Positions 350-5,554 are shown, counted from the stretch's first letter. The stretch is 5,813 nucleotides of DNA from a virus (IMGVR_UViG_2690316152_000004:1-5813), one strand, 5' to 3'. The notes: a model not told the origin generated them from the sequence alone. Numbers and translations are program-made.

Positions 350-426
350 TGGCGCGTTGTAGTGGAGTCGAACCACTGACCGATTGCTTAGAAGGCAATT
401 GCTCTGTCCGGCTGAGCTAACAACGC
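350..426 (-). tRNA. tRNA-Arg, anticodon UCU (reads AGA)
   Basis: Reverse complement gives a 77-nt cloverleaf: acceptor GCGTTGT/ACAACGC, D-arm GCTC...GAGC, anticodon stem ATTGC/GCAAT with loop CTTCTAA, T-arm AGTGG-TTCGACT-CCACT, discriminator G and encoded CCA. It resembles the argN/argO-type tRNAs found downstream of Q in lambdoid and Stx prophages. Confidence 0.9.
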
Positions 427-526
427 AGAATACCGATAATGGACCGCCATCGGGGACCCGCCCCCGCACCAACAACCCTGTTATGGTGTCGTCTGCTCTT
501 CCTGATAAGCTAATGGCGGTATGTGA

Positions 527-602
527 TGGTGGCCCTTGCTGGATTTGAACCAGCGACCTGGCGATTATGAGTCGCTCGCTCTCACCACTGAGCTAAAGGG
601 CC
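527..602 (-). tRNA. tRNA-Ile2 (anticodon CAU, lysidine type; formally CAT, so Met cannot be excluded from sequence alone)
   Basis: Reverse complement is GGCCCTTTAGCTCAGTGGTGAGAGCGAGCGACTCATAATCGCCAGGTCGCTGGTTCAAATCCAGCAAGGGCCACCA, 76 nt, with a perfect 7-bp acceptor stem, anticodon loop CTCATAA and T-loop TTCAAAT. It is closely similar to E. coli ileX/ileY-type tRNA-Ile2 as I recall it, not to elongator or initiator tRNA-Met. Confidence 0.88.
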
Positions 603-651: not shown

Positions 652-1701
652 TCAAACGATTAAATCCTGAACTTCCCTGACTGTCTGCTCAAAACGTTCA
701 GTCTCCAGCTCAACGCCAATTGCACGACGCCCGAGCGCCAGTGCCGCTTTTACCGTTGAACCTGAGCCCATAAAAAAATCTGCAACCAGGTCACCCGGAC
801 GACTGCTTGCGCTGATTATCTGCTGCAGCATTTCTGCCGGTTTTTCGCACGGATGTTTCCCGGGATAGAACTGCACCGGTTTATGTGTCCACACATCCGT
901 GTACGGCACCTGCGCCGTCACACCAAAATACCGCCGCAGATGCTTATATTCACTCTGCAGCTCCGCATACTGTCGGTTCAGAGAGGCATACGTATCCACC
1001 AGCTGGTGGTGGGGCTTTTCCAGTTCACCCCGCTGATGCTTCTCTTCTGCCACCCGGGCAAACAGTGCCTGTAATTTCAGATAATCGCTTTCGTTCGGCA
1101 GCTGCCACTGACCGGCACTGAACCAGTGCGACACCATGTTTTTCTTTCCTGTGGCATCTGCAATCTGTTTTGCCGTTATCCCCAGGACAGCGCGCGCATC
1201 ACGAAAGTAAGCAATCAGCGGGGCCATCACATGCTGTTTCAGTGCCCTACCCTTCGCCTCATACCCGGCATCTTTCGGACGATACGGCCCCTGATAATGC
1301 TCTGCGAACAGAATGCGCTCTGTGGCGGGGAAATACGCCCGCAGGCTTTCCTTGTTGCACCCGTTCCAGCGTCCGGACGGCTTTGCCCAGATGATATGGT
1401 TCAGCACGTTAAACCGCTCACGCATCATGATTTCGGTGTCAGATGCCAGACGATGGCCACAGAACAGGTAAAGACTTCCGGCAGGTTTCAGCACCCGCCA
1501 GAACTGCGCAAGACACTGGTCCAGCCACTTCAGGTAATCTTCATCACCCGCCCACTGGTTATCCCAGCCCTCGGGTTTCACTTTGAAGTACGGCGGGTCC
1601 GTGACTATCAGGTCAACAGAATTTTCGGGTAACGACCGCATAAATTCCAGGCAGTCGGCGTTGATTAACTCACAACTGGATATTTTTACAGTATTAAGCA
1701 T
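652..1701 (-). CDS. Orphan DNA N6-adenine methyltransferase, beta class (349 aa)
   Basis: ATG at 1701 and TGA at 652. Motif IV DPPY lies near the N-terminus (LIVTDPPYF) and motif I FxGSGS near the C-terminus (FFMGSGSTVKAA), the beta-class order. No restriction endonuclease gene is adjacent. Its position between Q and the tRNA genes matches prophage-encoded methylases. Confidence 0.85.
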   Translation of the reverse strand: MLNTVKISSCELINADCLEFMRSLPENSVDLIVTDPPYFKVKPEGWDNQWAGDEDYLKWLDQCLAQFWRVLKPAGSLYLFCGHRLASDTEIMMRERFNVLNHIIWAKPSGRWNGCNKESLRAYFPATERILFAEHYQGPYRPKDAGYEAKGRALKQHVMAPLIAYFRDARAVLGITAKQIADATGKKNMVSHWFSAGQWQLPNESDYLKLQALFARVAEEKHQRGELEKPHHQLVDTYASLNRQYAELQSEYKHLRRYFGVTAQVPYTDVWTHKPVQFYPGKHPCEKPAEMLQQIISASSRPGDLVADFFMGSGSTVKAALALGRRAIGVELETERFEQTVREVQDLIV

Positions 1702-1837
1702 GGATCATTAAGCCTGTCTCTGATAGGCTCATTCTGCTTTTGCGCAAAGCAGTGGGCCTGAGGTTTGCTTGTGAACCCAACGCATGAGCAGATGGCTGGT
1801 GGGTGCCCCTTACACCCACCAGCCGCCCATTTACCAC

Positions 1838-1866
1838 AAATAAAAAAGCCTTCAGGACTGAAGGCG
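1838..1866 (-). terminator. Rho-independent terminator at the 3' end of the small HTH-like ORF
   Basis: Minus-strand RNA reads GCCUUCA-GUCC-UGAAGGC (7-bp perfect stem; + strand 1848-1865) followed by UUUUUUAUUUG. The hairpin overlaps the last codons and stop of ORF 1852..2049. Confidence 0.65.
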
Positions 1867-2049
1867 TCTGTAACAACCAAACTGATAGTCTGCCAGACCC
1901 GCCATAACCAGCTGGGTCAGTATTAACTGGCAGCGTTCGCGTGAAAGGTAAGTATTCTGCGCAATCTCCCCGACTGTCGCCGGGTCGGTAACGCTTAATT
2001 CATTAAACACCACTCTGGCGGTTTCTGTCATATCCTGCTGTTTCAGCAT
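1852..2049 (-). CDS. Small hypothetical protein (65 aa) with a helix-turn-helix-like segment
   Basis: ATG at 2049..2047 is preceded by GGAAAAGGGAAAAAGAC (SD-like AAGGGA about 7 nt upstream). The protein is MLKQQDMTETARVVFNELSVTDPATVGEIAQNTYLSRERCQLILTQLVMAGLADYQFGCYRRLQS. The track ORF starting at 2172 begins on GTG inside the terminator and is unlikely. No family recognised. Confidence 0.5.
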   Translation of the reverse strand: MLKQQDMTETARVVFNELSVTDPATVGEIAQNTYLSRERCQLILTQLVMAGLADYQFGCYRRLQS

Positions 2050-2170
2050 GTCTTTTTCCCTTTTCCGGTTAACGTGACACACCAATAACTCTTGTCGAAA
2101 AAGCCAGCAACCTGAAAGAACGGTATTAATAACCACCAGCGAATTTATTGCGCTGCTGTATATTACGGAC

Positions 2171-2193
2171 ACAAAAAAACCACCTTCCGGTGG
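2171..2193 (-). terminator. Rho-independent terminator downstream of the Q-like gene (tR'-like by position)
   Basis: Minus-strand RNA reads CCACC-GGAA-GGUGG (5-bp GC-rich stem, GNRA-type tetraloop; + strand 2180-2193) followed by UUUUUUU (2173-2179), about 100 nt downstream of the Q-like stop. Confidence 0.75.
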
Positions 2194-2290
2194 CTTCCTT
2201 GTGCGAAAAAACTTGCATTTCGCCTCGCGATACAGCTTTGCGAAGCTTACAGGAATTCAAGCTGTTTCTGCGTAAAAAAGCAAGCTTTTT

Positions 2291-2833
2291 TTATCGAAAT
2301 GAATCGTGCATAGGTACATAAAGCATGTGTTCAGCCACGGCTAACCAACCTGCAATACGTTTCTCACATGTGCTGAAACACCATTCCGGGTGAGTACGAT
2401 TTAAACATTCTGCCATTTTTCTCTTACTCATTCCCCGTCCTTCGTACCTTTGCCGGAGAATATTGATTAGCCCGGGATATTCCCCAAGCACCTCACTGAT
2501 AACGCGATCAATAATCAACGCCTCTGTGTCTGTACAATGTGACAACCAGCTCTTCTGCTTCCCTCTGGTCATATCCCGAAAAAATGCCTCAAGTTCCGGT
2601 TTTTCCAGCCCGGATTTCTTCATGCTGCGTAAAACCTCATTAACTGCTGTTTTCGTCAGCTTTTTCGAAACCAGTAACCGGTTAAACATATTTCCGGATT
2701 TATCCCCACCGATATACGACCACCGCCCCCACATCCGTAATTTCCCCTGGATCCAGACTGCTTCCAGCGTGTTCAGGCGTAAATGTTCGCCGCTTTTGCC
2801 TGTAATTTCCGGATATATCATATTTACGCTCAC
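2291..2833 (-). CDS. Putative late-gene antitermination protein Q-like (180 aa)
   Basis: It lies immediately downstream of rusA with a GTGA stop/start overlap, and an alternative ATG is at 2821. It is followed by an intrinsic terminator, the classical Q to tR' arrangement. The N-terminal WGRW motif (LRMWGRWSYIGG) resembles the WGAW motif of Q21/QuuD-type antiterminators. The family call is from memory and position, not a search. Confidence 0.6.
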   Translation of the reverse strand: MSVNMIYPEITGKSGEHLRLNTLEAVWIQGKLRMWGRWSYIGGDKSGNMFNRLLVSKKLTKTAVNEVLRSMKKSGLEKPELEAFFRDMTRGKQKSWLSHCTDTEALIIDRVISEVLGEYPGLINILRQRYEGRGMSKRKMAECLNRTHPEWCFSTCEKRIAGWLAVAEHMLYVPMHDSFR

Positions 2834-3201: not shown

Positions 3202-4125
3202 TTACCCGAGCACGCCGGTTGCAAAGGCGTGATCAAGAAAACGAAAAATTAAATCAACCTGGGAACCATGCTTTTCTTCGAACGCCAGCGGATCCGCATG
3301 AAGCTCGTTGTGATGCTCCCGACACAGCGGTAGCGTGAAAATATCGTGGGATTTTGTTCCCATTCCGCCCTGACCATGACCAATCAGATGATGAGGATCG
3401 TCCGCTGGCTTACCACAACACGCACACGGCTGTGTCTTTACCCAGCGTGTGTATTTCTCATTTACCCAGCGGCGACGTTTAGGTCGTTTCATGAAGGATT
3501 CCGGAGACTCCGGATCAACGGCAATGCTTACCACCGTCTTTTCCTGTGGCGGGTTTTGCTGGTGGGCGTGAGGCAGCGGCGCAAGATTTTTTGTGCGCTG
3601 TTTCAGGATGCTGGTGGCTGTCTGTTCTCCCGGTATGATGTCGCTTTCGCGGTACACCGAGCGGATTTTTTCCGCACGTAACCCCAGAGAACGACGTAAT
3701 GCTGCCTCTGGTAGCGCATCCGCCACCTGATTGCAGACCGCCCACCAGGATAATTCACCCAGAGATAATTCCCGCTCCTGCGTGCCATTCATTGCATGGC
3801 GTATGACGTCAATCATCCATGCTGACAAATTTTGGTGAGCAAGTTGCCCGAGTGATTCGGAGGTCTGGTCACGCAACTGGTTGTCGCAGTGCCAGCACAA
3901 CACCATTGCGCCGGTACCATAACGGTGAATGACAGTTTCGCTGTGGTGATAATCGCCGTGTGGCCACTGGCAGGATTTAATATGGCGCAACAGCCAGTCA
4001 GACAATGCACCAGCACCACCAGCAGCACGAATCACTCGTTCGTCGCTGAAAAATGGCAGCAATGTTTTGTCTTCCACCAGCGGATGGCGAACGGCAGGAA
4101 CGACCCCGGACGGCAGATTACGCAT
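3202..4125 (-). CDS. ydfU: YdfU-like DUF968 protein with HNH-type Cys/His motifs, downstream copy (native C-terminus, N-terminus removed by the duplication junction)
   Basis: TAA at 3202. The first in-frame ATG after the duplication junction is at 4125..4123 (MRNLPSGVV...), giving 307 aa. The track's longer 345-aa form starts at TTG 4239 and reads the upstream copy's 3' end out of frame, so it is unlikely. C-terminal motif: CACCGKPADDPHHLIGHGQGG...CREHHNELH. N-terminal module: CQWPHGDYHH...CWHCDNQ. The YdfU/DUF968 assignment is by length, motif and Qin-like synteny (ydfU-rem-hokD), from memory. Confidence 0.7.
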   Translation of the reverse strand: MRNLPSGVVPAVRHPLVEDKTLLPFFSDERVIRAAGGAGALSDWLLRHIKSCQWPHGDYHHSETVIHRYGTGAMVLCWHCDNQLRDQTSESLGQLAHQNLSAWMIDVIRHAMNGTQERELSLGELSWWAVCNQVADALPEAALRRSLGLRAEKIRSVYRESDIIPGEQTATSILKQRTKNLAPLPHAHQQNPPQEKTVVSIAVDPESPESFMKRPKRRRWVNEKYTRWVKTQPCACCGKPADDPHHLIGHGQGGMGTKSHDIFTLPLCREHHNELHADPLAFEEKHGSQVDLIFRFLDHAFATGVLG

Positions 4126-4981
4126 GCTTTTCTTCGAACGCCAGCGGATCCGCATGAAGCTCGTTGTGATGCTCCCGACACAGCGGTAGCGTGAAAATAT
4201 CGTGGGATTTTGTTCCCATTCCGCCCTGACCATGACCAATCAGATGATGAGGATCGTCCGCTGGCTTACCACAACACGCACACGGCTGTGTCTTTACCCA
4301 GCGTGTGTATTTCTCATTTACCCAGCGGCGACGTTTAGGTCGTTTCATGAAGGATTCCGGAGACTCCGGATCAACGGCAATGCTGACCACCGTCTTTTCC
4401 TGTGGTGGGTTCTGTTGCTGGTGGGTGTGAGGCGGTAGCGCAATATTTTTTGTGCGCTGCTTCAGTATGCTGGTGGCGGTCTGCTCTCCCGGCACGATGT
4501 CGCTTTCACGGTACATTGAGCGGATTTTTTCCGCACGCCCCCCCAGCGAACGACGTAATACCGCTTCCGGTAGCGCGTCCGCCACCTGATTGCGGACCGC
4601 CCACCAGGATAATTCAGCCAAAGATAATTCACGCTCCTGCGTACCGCTTATTGCGTGACCGATGACGTCAATCATCCATGCTGACAGGTTTTGATGAGCA
4701 AGTTGCTCGAGTGATTCGGATGTCTGGTCACGCAGCTGGTTGTCGCAGTGCCAGCACAACACCATTGCGCCGGTACCATAACGGTGAATGACAGTTTCGC
4801 TGTGATGATAATCGCCGTGTGGCCACTGGCAGGATTTAATATGGCGCAACAGCCAGTCAGACAATGCACCAGCACCACCAGCAGCACGAATCACTCGTTC
4901 GTCGCTGAAAAATGGCAGCAATGTTTTGTCTTCCACCAGCGGATGGCGAACGGCAGGAACGACCCCGGACGGCAGATTACG
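3267..4981. repeat. Head-to-tail tandem duplication: two units of about 856 and 859 bp (3267-4122 and 4123-4981) inside the ydfU-like gene
   Basis: CATGCTTTTC occurs at 3267, 4123 and 4982. The units are identical for the first ~262 bp, differ at about 45 positions plus one 3-bp indel across the central ~350 bp, and show a single difference in the last ~240 bp. Confidence 0.9.
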
Positions 4982-5107
4982 CATGCTTTTCGGTTCCGGC
5001 TCCACCAGTACCCGGGTATTGTGAAATACCTGCATGGATTCACGACCTGGCTTAAGGGCCACCAGCCCGAGTTCCGGTACCAGAACAGGTCGAAGTAATA
5101 CCCGCAC
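4118..5107 (-). CDS. YdfU-like DUF968 protein, upstream copy (native N-terminus, C-terminus truncated at the duplication junction); possibly a pseudogene
   Basis: GTG at 5107 is preceded by a strong SD (TGGAGGT, about 5 nt spacing); an alternative ATG is at 5035. The protein ends ...LAFEEKHA then TAA at 4118, whereas the downstream copy continues ...LAFEEKHGSQVDLIFRFLDHAFATGVLG. Both Cys/His modules are retained. Confidence 0.7.
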   Translation of the reverse strand: MRVLLRPVLVPELGLVALKPGRESMQVFHNTRVLVEPEPKSMRNLPSGVVPAVRHPLVEDKTLLPFFSDERVIRAAGGAGALSDWLLRHIKSCQWPHGDYHHSETVIHRYGTGAMVLCWHCDNQLRDQTSESLEQLAHQNLSAWMIDVIGHAISGTQERELSLAELSWWAVRNQVADALPEAVLRRSLGGRAEKIRSMYRESDIVPGEQTATSILKQRTKNIALPPHTHQQQNPPQEKTVVSIAVDPESPESFMKRPKRRRWVNEKYTRWVKTQPCACCGKPADDPHHLIGHGQGGMGTKSHDIFTLPLCREHHNELHADPLAFEEKHA

Positions 5108-5460: not shown

Positions 5461-5486
5461 AAAAACAAAACCCGCCGAAGCGGGTT
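5461..5486 (-). terminator. Rho-independent terminator downstream of hok
   Basis: Minus-strand RNA reads AACCCGC-UUCG-GCGGGUU (7-bp perfect stem, UUCG tetraloop; + strand 5469-5486) followed by UUGUUUUU (5461-5468). Confidence 0.7.
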
Positions 5487-5554
5487 AAGTGCGGGTGCGT
5501 TGAGGATGCCTGACACATCAGCGGTGGCGAGGGATTTCTCCCCCGCCTGGTCTC

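Follow-up and report, generated by a model that had tools for sequence, protein, structure and literature searches.

What does a 65-amino-acid (aa) open reading frame (ORF), lying between two terminator-like hairpins at the head of a phage late operon, do there? The locus is part of 5,813 nucleotides (nt) of viral DNA (IMGVR_UViG_2690316152_000004:1-5813; hereafter the window, meaning the whole stretch that was analysed), which represents the late-regulation region of a lambdoid prophage with its genes, and the module discussed here, on the minus strand. The ORF is the first cistron after pR′/tR′ in the Q-dependent late operon of this prophage. Across phages of the Enterobacterales, among them prophages of many gut bacteria, it forms part of a three-part module, composed of a conserved upstream block with the ORF and a hairpin at its stop codon, a structured RNA leader of ~145 nt, and an adenine methylase of the M.EcoGII type. 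The encoded winged-helix protein is probably a dedicated regulator of the methylase, analogous but not homologous to Com in the com-mom system of phage Mu, and we infer, with a probability of about 0.45, that it regulates or serves the methylase unit. The combination of winged-helix gene, leader and M.EcoGII-type methylase appears to be undescribed so far.

The ORF occupies 1852..2049 on the minus strand (2049..1852, ATG to TGA) and is preceded by the Shine-Dalgarno sequence AAGGG at 2058..2062, 8 nt before the ATG, in agreement with the gene call and the good ribosome-binding site proposed from a sequence-only reading of this DNA. An AAGG/GGA motif is kept at the Shine-Dalgarno position among related loci. 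The ORF is a genuine coding gene, because its codons vary mainly at the third position and it is mostly intact in relatives. The entropy per codon position is 0.63 / 0.51 / 1.26 across 33 unique coding sequences from many genera, and in the N-terminus MLKQQDMTE and in helix 3 (RCQLILTQLV) the third codon positions vary while the amino acids are invariant. The protein matches the phrog_331 profile (E = 2e-37), and its 51 distinct intact orthologues measure 63-67 aa; this small family is confined to phages and has 62 representatives in a set of 1.84 billion proteins. It is already annotated, with function unknown in the annotation, as RefSeq calls the orthologues either 'hypothetical protein' or 'TrmB family transcriptional regulator' (e.g. 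phiP27 L23, SfV orf47), and a literature search by protein accession and peptide strings returned nothing about the ORF. A longer, 106-aa form beginning with GTG at 2172 was ruled out, as upstream indels break the frame, codon periodicity is absent there and it is at MLKQQDMTE that the conserved protein starts; over-long gene calls of this kind probably account for the additional N-terminal positions in the phrog_331 profile.

The ORF has a conserved downstream neighbour. The sequence-only reading had suggested a small regulator acting at the early/late boundary, for which no specific support was found; the ORF is tied to a methylase gene instead, the order ORF then methylase being found in 36 of 40 loci (phages plus one-genome-per-species contigs). 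From Escherichia to Plesiomonas, nearly all loci have 147-154 nt between the ORF stop and the methylase ATG, and this spacer length holds in Hafnia, Morganella and Plesiomonas, where the two proteins are only 43-57% (ORF) and 59-72% (methylase) identical. Among 121 leader sites in viral contigs, 107 carry both genes, 8 the methylase only, 1 the ORF only and 0 neither. Enough flanking sequence was available at 129 leader sites; 111 of these retain ORF and methylase intact, 10 lack an intact ORF, 5 an intact methylase and 3 both. The ORF-only loci (phiSTEC1575-Stx2k, ATCC 25922 and L059) arose by deletion and still have the leader's 5′ part; in L059 (2133-2460) an internal deletion joins the leader to the C-terminal end of the methylase. 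Decayed ORFs were seen as a premature stop (L036), an internal deletion (L030) and a lost stop (L032), the methylase of L032 being frameshifted as well. The region from ORF to methylase is matched in 2,531 of 5,426 complete E. coli genomes, including many Shiga toxin (Stx) phages, in which it lies just upstream of stx.

The methylase gene (652..1701, minus strand; PF01555, 4e-44) encodes a beta-class N6-adenine methyltransferase that is an ortholog of the non-specific M.EcoGII. The two are identical at 325 of 350 aligned positions (93%; M.EcoGII sequence from the supplement of PMC11551740), and the window enzyme has the beta-class motif order, with an N-terminal DPPY (VTDPPYF) and a C-terminal FxGxG (FFMGSGS). 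By this identity and these motifs, the window methylase is predicted to be non-specific like M.EcoGII, which methylates adenine in any context (PMC5778455). Lysogens do not express M.EcoGII, and its constitutive production harms cells; the paper that describes the enzyme calls the gene 'switched off', does not contain the word 'upstream' and does not discuss control elements (PMC5778455).

The spacer between the two genes is a covariation-supported structured RNA. This leader (1843..1699, minus strand) ends at the methylase ATG (1701..1699) and scores 126 bits (E = 1.5e-33) with covariance model R1, which was built solely from sequences outside the E. coli group. Covariation supports helices P1 (1824..1813 with 1805..1794), P2 (1792..1783 with 1773..1764) and Hd (1758..1752 with 1732..1726), and P3 (1750..1746 with 1740..1736) lies inside Hd, all on the minus strand. 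In an alignment fitted to the covariance model, which favours the P1/P2/Hd structure, 96.1% of the cells in P1, P2 and Hd/P3 can pair, and compensatory double changes are present in 11 pairs, amounting to 76 cells; none of 500 shuffled controls came up to these values, and no slid control had more than 8 such cells. One P2 pair, for example, occurs as U-A (30), C-G (28) and A-U (18). The RNA was placed on the minus strand because G-U pairs are frequent in it. It contains long invariant blocks and has a constant length of 143-146 nt, and its nucleotide identity (66-81%) equals or exceeds that of its flanks (ORF 56-86%, methylase 62-79%). No Rfam family matches the leader, the only hit being a weak one to P26 over P1 alone (24.3 bits on the plus and 14.3 on the minus strand against a gathering score of 36), and the leader appears to be a new candidate RNA family that is seemingly undescribed. 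A hidden ORF in the ~150-nt spacer was rejected for either strand (for example MGGWWV..., or a 53-aa plus-strand frame at 1765..1926), since indels in the loops disrupt the reading frame and codon 7 is a stop in the window.

Four leader segments could pair in alternative ways: segment 1 is AUGGGC, segment 2 is UUCGCUCAUG, segment 3 is GGUCACAAGCGAA, and segment 4, CGCUUACUGAUC, abuts the methylase AUG. Helices P0 (UGGGC:GCCCA), Hb (1:2) and H34 (3:4) are pairable in 89-100% of cells, and their near-invariance means that covariation cannot decide for or against them. No canonical Shine-Dalgarno sequence precedes the methylase. A near-invariant UGAUC(C/U), which holds a Dam GATC site, abuts its AUG (window 1702-1707, minus strand) and is complementary to GGAUCA just 5′ of the anti-Shine-Dalgarno sequence in 16S rRNA, with which it may pair.

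As the sequence-only reading noted, the ORF is bracketed by two terminator-like hairpins and lies downstream of a Q-type antiterminator gene (PF06530/DUF1133). The upstream hairpin is a tR′-type intrinsic terminator (2193..2166, minus strand), CCACC-GGAA-GGTGG followed by T7, with a predicted energy of -15.1 kcal/mol (z = -3.6); its GC core of 5 base pairs (bp) extends to 12 bp with flanking A-U pairs. A pattern scan listed the hairpin at 2180-2193 under the plus strand only, the T7 run itself being on the minus strand. A GC-rich hairpin with a T-run occurs at the tR′ position in every related locus. The downstream hairpin (1865..1838, minus strand), GCCTTCA-GTCC-TGAAGGC followed by TTTTTTATTT (T6AT3), was found by the pattern scan, has an energy of -10.5 kcal/mol (z = -2.8) and contains the TGA stop of the ORF as the first triplet of the 3′ arm of its 7-bp stem. 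Both predicted terminators have the GC-rich hairpin and ensuing U-run of intrinsic terminators, and the pattern scan counts 4 terminator-like sites in 1600-2400 compared with 1.0 +/- 1.1 in shuffles.

Of 31 unique sequences, 27 have the hairpin around the stop codon, and its stem shows compensatory changes. Only 14 of these 27 carry 5 or more T in the 8-nt tail, and a canonical U-tract is confined to the E. coli/Stx-phage lineage, which includes the window, and a few others. The 'strong terminator' once proposed for this position is borne out as a hairpin with a T-run in the window and is not general, as only about half of the lineages have a good U-tract. A terminator-like hairpin lies directly 5′ of the leader in every context; at loci without the 65-aa ORF its place is taken by tR′ itself or by another gene's hairpin. 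The hairpin once read as a second terminator is the first one upstream of the methylase leader, and in the window's lineage it is a predicted terminator. A hairpin directly before every leader fits an insulation of the toxic methylase from transcription by polymerase that has not been modified by Q. From known ribosome footprints, a ribosome terminating at the ORF stop codon should cover the 3′ arm of the hairpin and weaken termination.

Upstream of tR′, a region without an ORF (2194..2290, minus strand) is the presumed site of the pR′ promoter and its short leader RNA. It is kept among prophages of the same Q type, and alignment with loci L005 and L007 gives a conserved CTTCGCAAAGCTGTA..CGAGGCGAA segment that ends at the terminator; among relatives with lambda-type qut loci, an equivalent terminator stands at the end of the pR′-like region. 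The assignment to pR′ is presumptive, as the promoter hexamers have not been pinned down. The pR′ promoter is constitutively active and its transcripts are terminated just downstream in lysogens (PMC7547250). In a lysogen of the present prophage, pR′ transcripts would halt at tR′, and transcripts that read through, or that start at a weak promoter of the ORF, would be halted again at the stop-codon hairpin. The leader would further restrict translation of the methylase, the terminators and leader acting as successive safeguards that would together silence the toxic enzyme. Q-modified polymerase ignores terminators, and after induction it would pass both hairpins, such that ORF and methylase would be made together. 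The winged-helix protein would then probably act by binding the leader RNA or its DNA, much as Com licenses translation of Mu mom and, in Mu-like phages, of the non-specific methylases that stand in for mom; an action on RNA of the Com kind is itself unlikely. This arrangement suggests a built-in safety and control unit for an M.EcoGII-type enzyme rather than a general early/late switch.

A more specific version of this proposal, which we consider doubtful, is that the 65-aa protein and the 145-nt leader form a post-transcriptional licensing switch for the promiscuous adenine methylase. The leader would be bistable, with pairings 1:2 and 3:4, the latter covering the AUG-adjacent region, opposed to pairing 2:3 (P2), and the winged-helix protein would change which fold prevails, so that synthesis of the toxic enzyme waits until the late operon is fully active. 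If true, Mu Com/mom would have a non-homologous lambdoid counterpart in this module, and the leader would represent a new family of cis-regulatory RNA.

The AlphaFold2 model of the 65-aa protein is a minimal winged helix (mean predicted local distance difference test score, pLDDT, 90.5) with the order alpha1-beta1-alpha2-alpha3-beta2-beta3, in which alpha3 is the recognition helix and the beta-hairpin the wing. The model bears out the helix-turn-helix-like stretch recognised earlier, and the Pfam helix-turn-helix families remain below threshold. Helix 3 (RCQLILTQLV) and wing residue R62 are invariant or nearly so in a protein that is otherwise down to 43% identity, and the N-terminal peptide MLKQQDMTE is invariant and flexible (pLDDT ~66). 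The best Foldseek matches are winged-helix dimerisation domains of S-adenosylmethionine (SAM)-dependent methyltransferases, at a generic E of ~1e-3, and the closest folds also include the DNA-binding domains of IclR, MarR and ArsR. The RefSeq name 'TrmB' is a fold-level guess, because TrmB (PF01978; 17.4 bits against a cut-off of 25.6, E = 0.004), MarR_2 (14.3 against 27), HTH_24 (13.1 against 21.9) and DprA_WH (15.1 against 22.9) all score below the Pfam gathering threshold; no NCBIfam model matches either. Characterised TrmB proteins carry a C-terminal effector or sugar-binding domain, and the 65-aa protein is a single winged-helix domain. Similarly, Zalpha domains (ADAR1, E3L) have a conserved Asn and Tyr in alpha3 and a Trp in the wing, and this triad is absent at the expected spacing from alpha3 (RCQLILTQLV) and wing (DYQFGCYRR) of the 65-aa protein, whose likeness to Zalpha is one of fold only. 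PADLOC returned no meaningful defence-system match for the ORF. The proteins fall into types A (encoded by the window) and B, and four natural recombinants (P0172, P0103, P0173 and P0176) join a type-A N-terminal half to a type-B C-terminal half, with the crossover inside the invariant RCQLILTQLV segment.

Several observations weigh against a role of the protein in controlling the methylase. Its proposed binding of the leader and regulation of the methylase are indirect deductions. Type-A protein has a net charge of ~-1, unusual for a nucleic-acid binder (type B, ~+4). Com is a Cys4 zinc finger of ~40-62 aa, whereas the window protein is a winged helix with C40 as its sole invariant Cys. The start region of the methylase has a paired probability of 0.66 compared with 0.54 +/- 0.10 with a shuffled leader, an occlusion that is not significant, and the thermodynamic ensemble prefers pairing 1:2 (0.71) over the covariation-supported P2, pairing 2:3 (0.10). 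M.EcoGII alone is active in vitro (PMC5778455). Moreover, 10 of the 129 leader sites have an intact methylase and no intact ORF, and since these sites keep leader and methylase, the ORF is not strictly required, at least in cis. Lastly, the ORF could be expressed in the lysogen on its own account, if the conserved block that precedes it is a promoter.

This block (2074..2111, minus strand) has the form CTTGCTG-N14-(C/A)AGAGTTAT-N2-GTRTGTCA in 91 unique upstream sequences from all genera, is non-coding and lies at a fixed distance from the ATG; it can also be written CTTGCTG-N14-AGAGTTAT-N2-GTGTGTCAC. Read as a promoter, it would comprise TTGCTG (2110..2105), a 17-bp spacer and TATTGG (2087..2082), in which the -10-like hexamer has G in place of the critical T at -7 and the -35 hexamer matches at 3 of 6 positions. 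A sigma-70 scan of 1600-2400 found no consensus promoter and did not call the block, and RNAalifold gave no consensus RNA fold in the block or in the 5′ untranslated region of the ORF. The sequence-only reading is thus upheld in that the ORF has no consensus promoter of its own. It saw only weak candidates in 2050-2170, and the sigma-70 match is indeed poor there, but it overlooked that this interval holds a block conserved across genera. The block is missing where the ORF is missing (L082 and L112) and goes with the ORF, not with the methylase; homology among phages that carry different Q genes starts just 3′ of the tR′ T-run, at window 2141-2147. We regard it as a candidate weak promoter or operator for the ORF. 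Sites for sigma-54, sigma-32, CRP, IHF, boxA or CII and a reverse-strand promoter were considered by eye against their consensuses, with no conserved match, and an extended -10 promoter, TGTGAAAAT-GGG, just 5′ of the leader was rejected as its essential A at -11 is G or T in many lineages, the window included.

The block gives rise to the first alternative, which is possible though not probable: the ORF may be an autonomous moron, a reading close to that made from the sequence alone. It would be transcribed in the lysogen from a weak or regulated promoter within 2111..2074, end at a terminator of its own and encode a DNA-binding transcription factor for phage or host genes that works apart from the methylase. 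The promoter-like geometry holds in all genera (TTGCTG, a 17-bp spacer, TAYNNG with G at -14, and ~26 nt to the ATG), and the inheritance of the block with the ORF, the canonical terminator after the gene in the E. coli lineage, the intact ORF in methylase-less phages (phiSTEC1575-Stx2k, ATCC 25922) and the nearest folds, which include the IclR, MarR and ArsR DNA-binding domains, all agree with it. The same hexamers, however, lack T at -7 and match -35 at only 3 positions, the scan finds no promoter, and half of the lineages have no good U-tract after the ORF. The tight linkage to leader and methylase at constant spacing would be unexpected for an independent gene, and no dimerisation or ligand domain is evident in 65 aa.

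Conserved synteny with a small gene upstream also favours a protein partner, in which case the winged-helix protein would bind the methylase and alter its activity, its stability or its choice of substrate (phage DNA as opposed to host DNA or RNA). MLKQQDMTE is invariant and has the flexibility typical of docking motifs, the type-A protein has a near-neutral or acidic character, and the top Foldseek matches are methyltransferase dimerisation domains. There is also a precedent, as a winged-helix ORF upstream of a methylase in phiPA8 co-purifies with the enzyme and directs it to 16S rRNA (PMC10810198). Nonetheless, we find such a partnership rather improbable: M.EcoGII alone is fully active and non-specific in vitro (PMC5778455), the Foldseek matches are generic, the methylase occurs without the ORF at the 10 sites mentioned above, and ORF subtypes A and B are shuffled with respect to methylase subtypes (mEp460, 51% for the ORF and 82% for the methylase; SfV, 94% and 81%).

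We give similarly little weight to a late winged-helix protein unrelated to the methylase, serving in counter-defence or in binding of host or phage proteins or nucleic acids, with the two genes neighbours only as accessory cargo at the Q-lysis junction. The interval from Q to lysis is a known cargo site, the same slot holding stx, tRNAs, iraM and DUF3927 genes, and a tiny phage-restricted family with a generic fold would suit this description. Yet the cargo genes found there are otherwise highly mosaic, and the ORF-methylase pair has conserved its order and spacer length even where identity falls to 43% (ORF) and 59% (methylase). Finally, a chance ORF between two hairpins, to which its length of only 65 aa and the sub-threshold scores of all Pfam and NCBIfam families might point, is already refuted by the coding-type entropy pattern, the phrog_331 match at 2e-37, the 51 intact proteins and the confidently predicted fold.

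On the minus strand of the window the gene order is hokD, a phrog_1212 ORF, two DUF968 genes, rusA, the Q-type antiterminator, the 65-aa ORF, the PF01555 methyltransferase, tRNA-Ile2(CAU) and tRNA-Arg(UCU). The Q-type late antiterminator gene (DUF1133 / Phage_antitermQ; 2291..2833, minus strand) matches Pfam PF06576 at 1e-109 and PF06530 at 1e-8, as well as phrog_753, 'anti-termination protein Q-like'. Window positions 1700-2300 are 100% identical to E. coli O157:H7 F8798 and other strains. The DUF968 pair is a tandem direct duplication (window 3267-4714; ORFs 4239..3202 and 5107..4118, minus strand) with a start-to-start spacing of 856-859 nt and copies that are 98% and 87% identical; the O157:H7 F8798 prophage, otherwise identical, has a single DUF968 copy. 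Between hokD and the phrog_1212 ORF lies a sub-threshold match (27.2 bits against a gathering score of 50; window 5465-5546, minus strand) to isrK, a small RNA of Salmonella Gifsy prophages. The tRNA pair 3′ of the methylase (window 350-602, minus strand) consists of tRNA-Ile2 (CAU; called Met by ARAGORN and Ile by RefSeq) and tRNA-Arg(UCU) and resembles ileZ/argO upstream of stx in Stx phages, although no stx follows in this prophage; in F8798, a DUF1737 pseudogene and a Mu-like transposase lie downstream of the tRNAs. The early region of the same prophage in F8798 (L004, 1976-2734) carries the adhesin gene paa (AcfC family) beside a frameshifted fimbrial gene.

M.EcoGII is in wide use as a reagent for footprinting, chromatin mapping and RNA N6-methyladenosine tools, and so far no account has been given of how a phage holds an enzyme that methylates every adenine in check during lysogeny and later activates it. 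A conserved winged-helix gene, terminator hairpin and structured leader offer a specific control circuit that is easy to test. Late transcripts of Stx phages must all cross the module before they reach stx, so that its terminators and RNA structures could affect toxin output.

Comparison with known systems places the module among several partial likenesses. Like phage morons, the ORF is a small accessory gene with a terminator and promoter-like block upstream and a terminator downstream; unlike morons, it has a weak promoter match, is oriented with and lies inside the late operon, and is inherited together with the gene downstream of it. Controller (C) proteins of restriction-modification systems are likewise encoded by small helix-turn-helix-type genes upstream of, and co-transcribed with, a potentially lethal modification or restriction gene that they time. 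C proteins, however, have an Xre-type five-helix fold, act at C-box operators and control a restriction endonuclease gene, whereas the window protein is a winged helix; it has no HTH_3 match, no C-box was found, and the module has no endonuclease gene. Lambdoid Q/pR′/tR′ control, including the StxS short RNA of Stx phages, shares with the window a Q gene, a short terminated transcript and late genes, and there too the terminators are overridden only by Q-modified RNA polymerase (PMC7547250). The textbook lambda/933W arrangement differs in lacking both a second hairpin after the first late cistron and a structured leader before the second. A further parallel is PNB-2 with M.EcoPA8orf6770P of the Stx phage phiPA8, a predicted winged-helix ORF immediately 5′ of a methyltransferase, with a terminator upstream and a functional tie between the two (PMC10810198); that enzyme belongs to the MT-A70 family and lies at the phage's left end rather than in the late operon, and PNB-2 is likened to the 65-aa protein by description only.

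The closest functional parallel is Mu com-mom and the Com homologues of FluMu (hin1523), Pnm1 (nma1821) and B3 (ORF47/48), in which a small nucleic-acid-binding gene lies directly 5′ of a host-toxic, anti-restriction, adenine-modifying enzyme gene; in FluMu, Pnm1 and B3, Com homologues are upstream of non-specific adenine methylases (PMC3299994, PMC6483171). Late expression, structured mRNA before the enzyme gene and silence in the lysogen are shared as well (PMC3299994, PMC6483171, PMC5778455). The systems differ in that com overlaps or abuts mom, whereas the window module has a 150-nt leader with four hairpins between its genes, and in that Com systems serve Mom or alpha-class methylases and the window a beta-class enzyme of the M.EcoGII type. 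Com activates translation by binding the leader of its target mRNA and opening a structure that inhibits translation; in these respects the window protein is a putative counterpart. In gene arrangement the window module follows the Com type, with a small gene 5′ of a toxic adenine-modification gene within a late operon, as seen in the 36 of 40 loci and the 107 of 121 leader sites described above.

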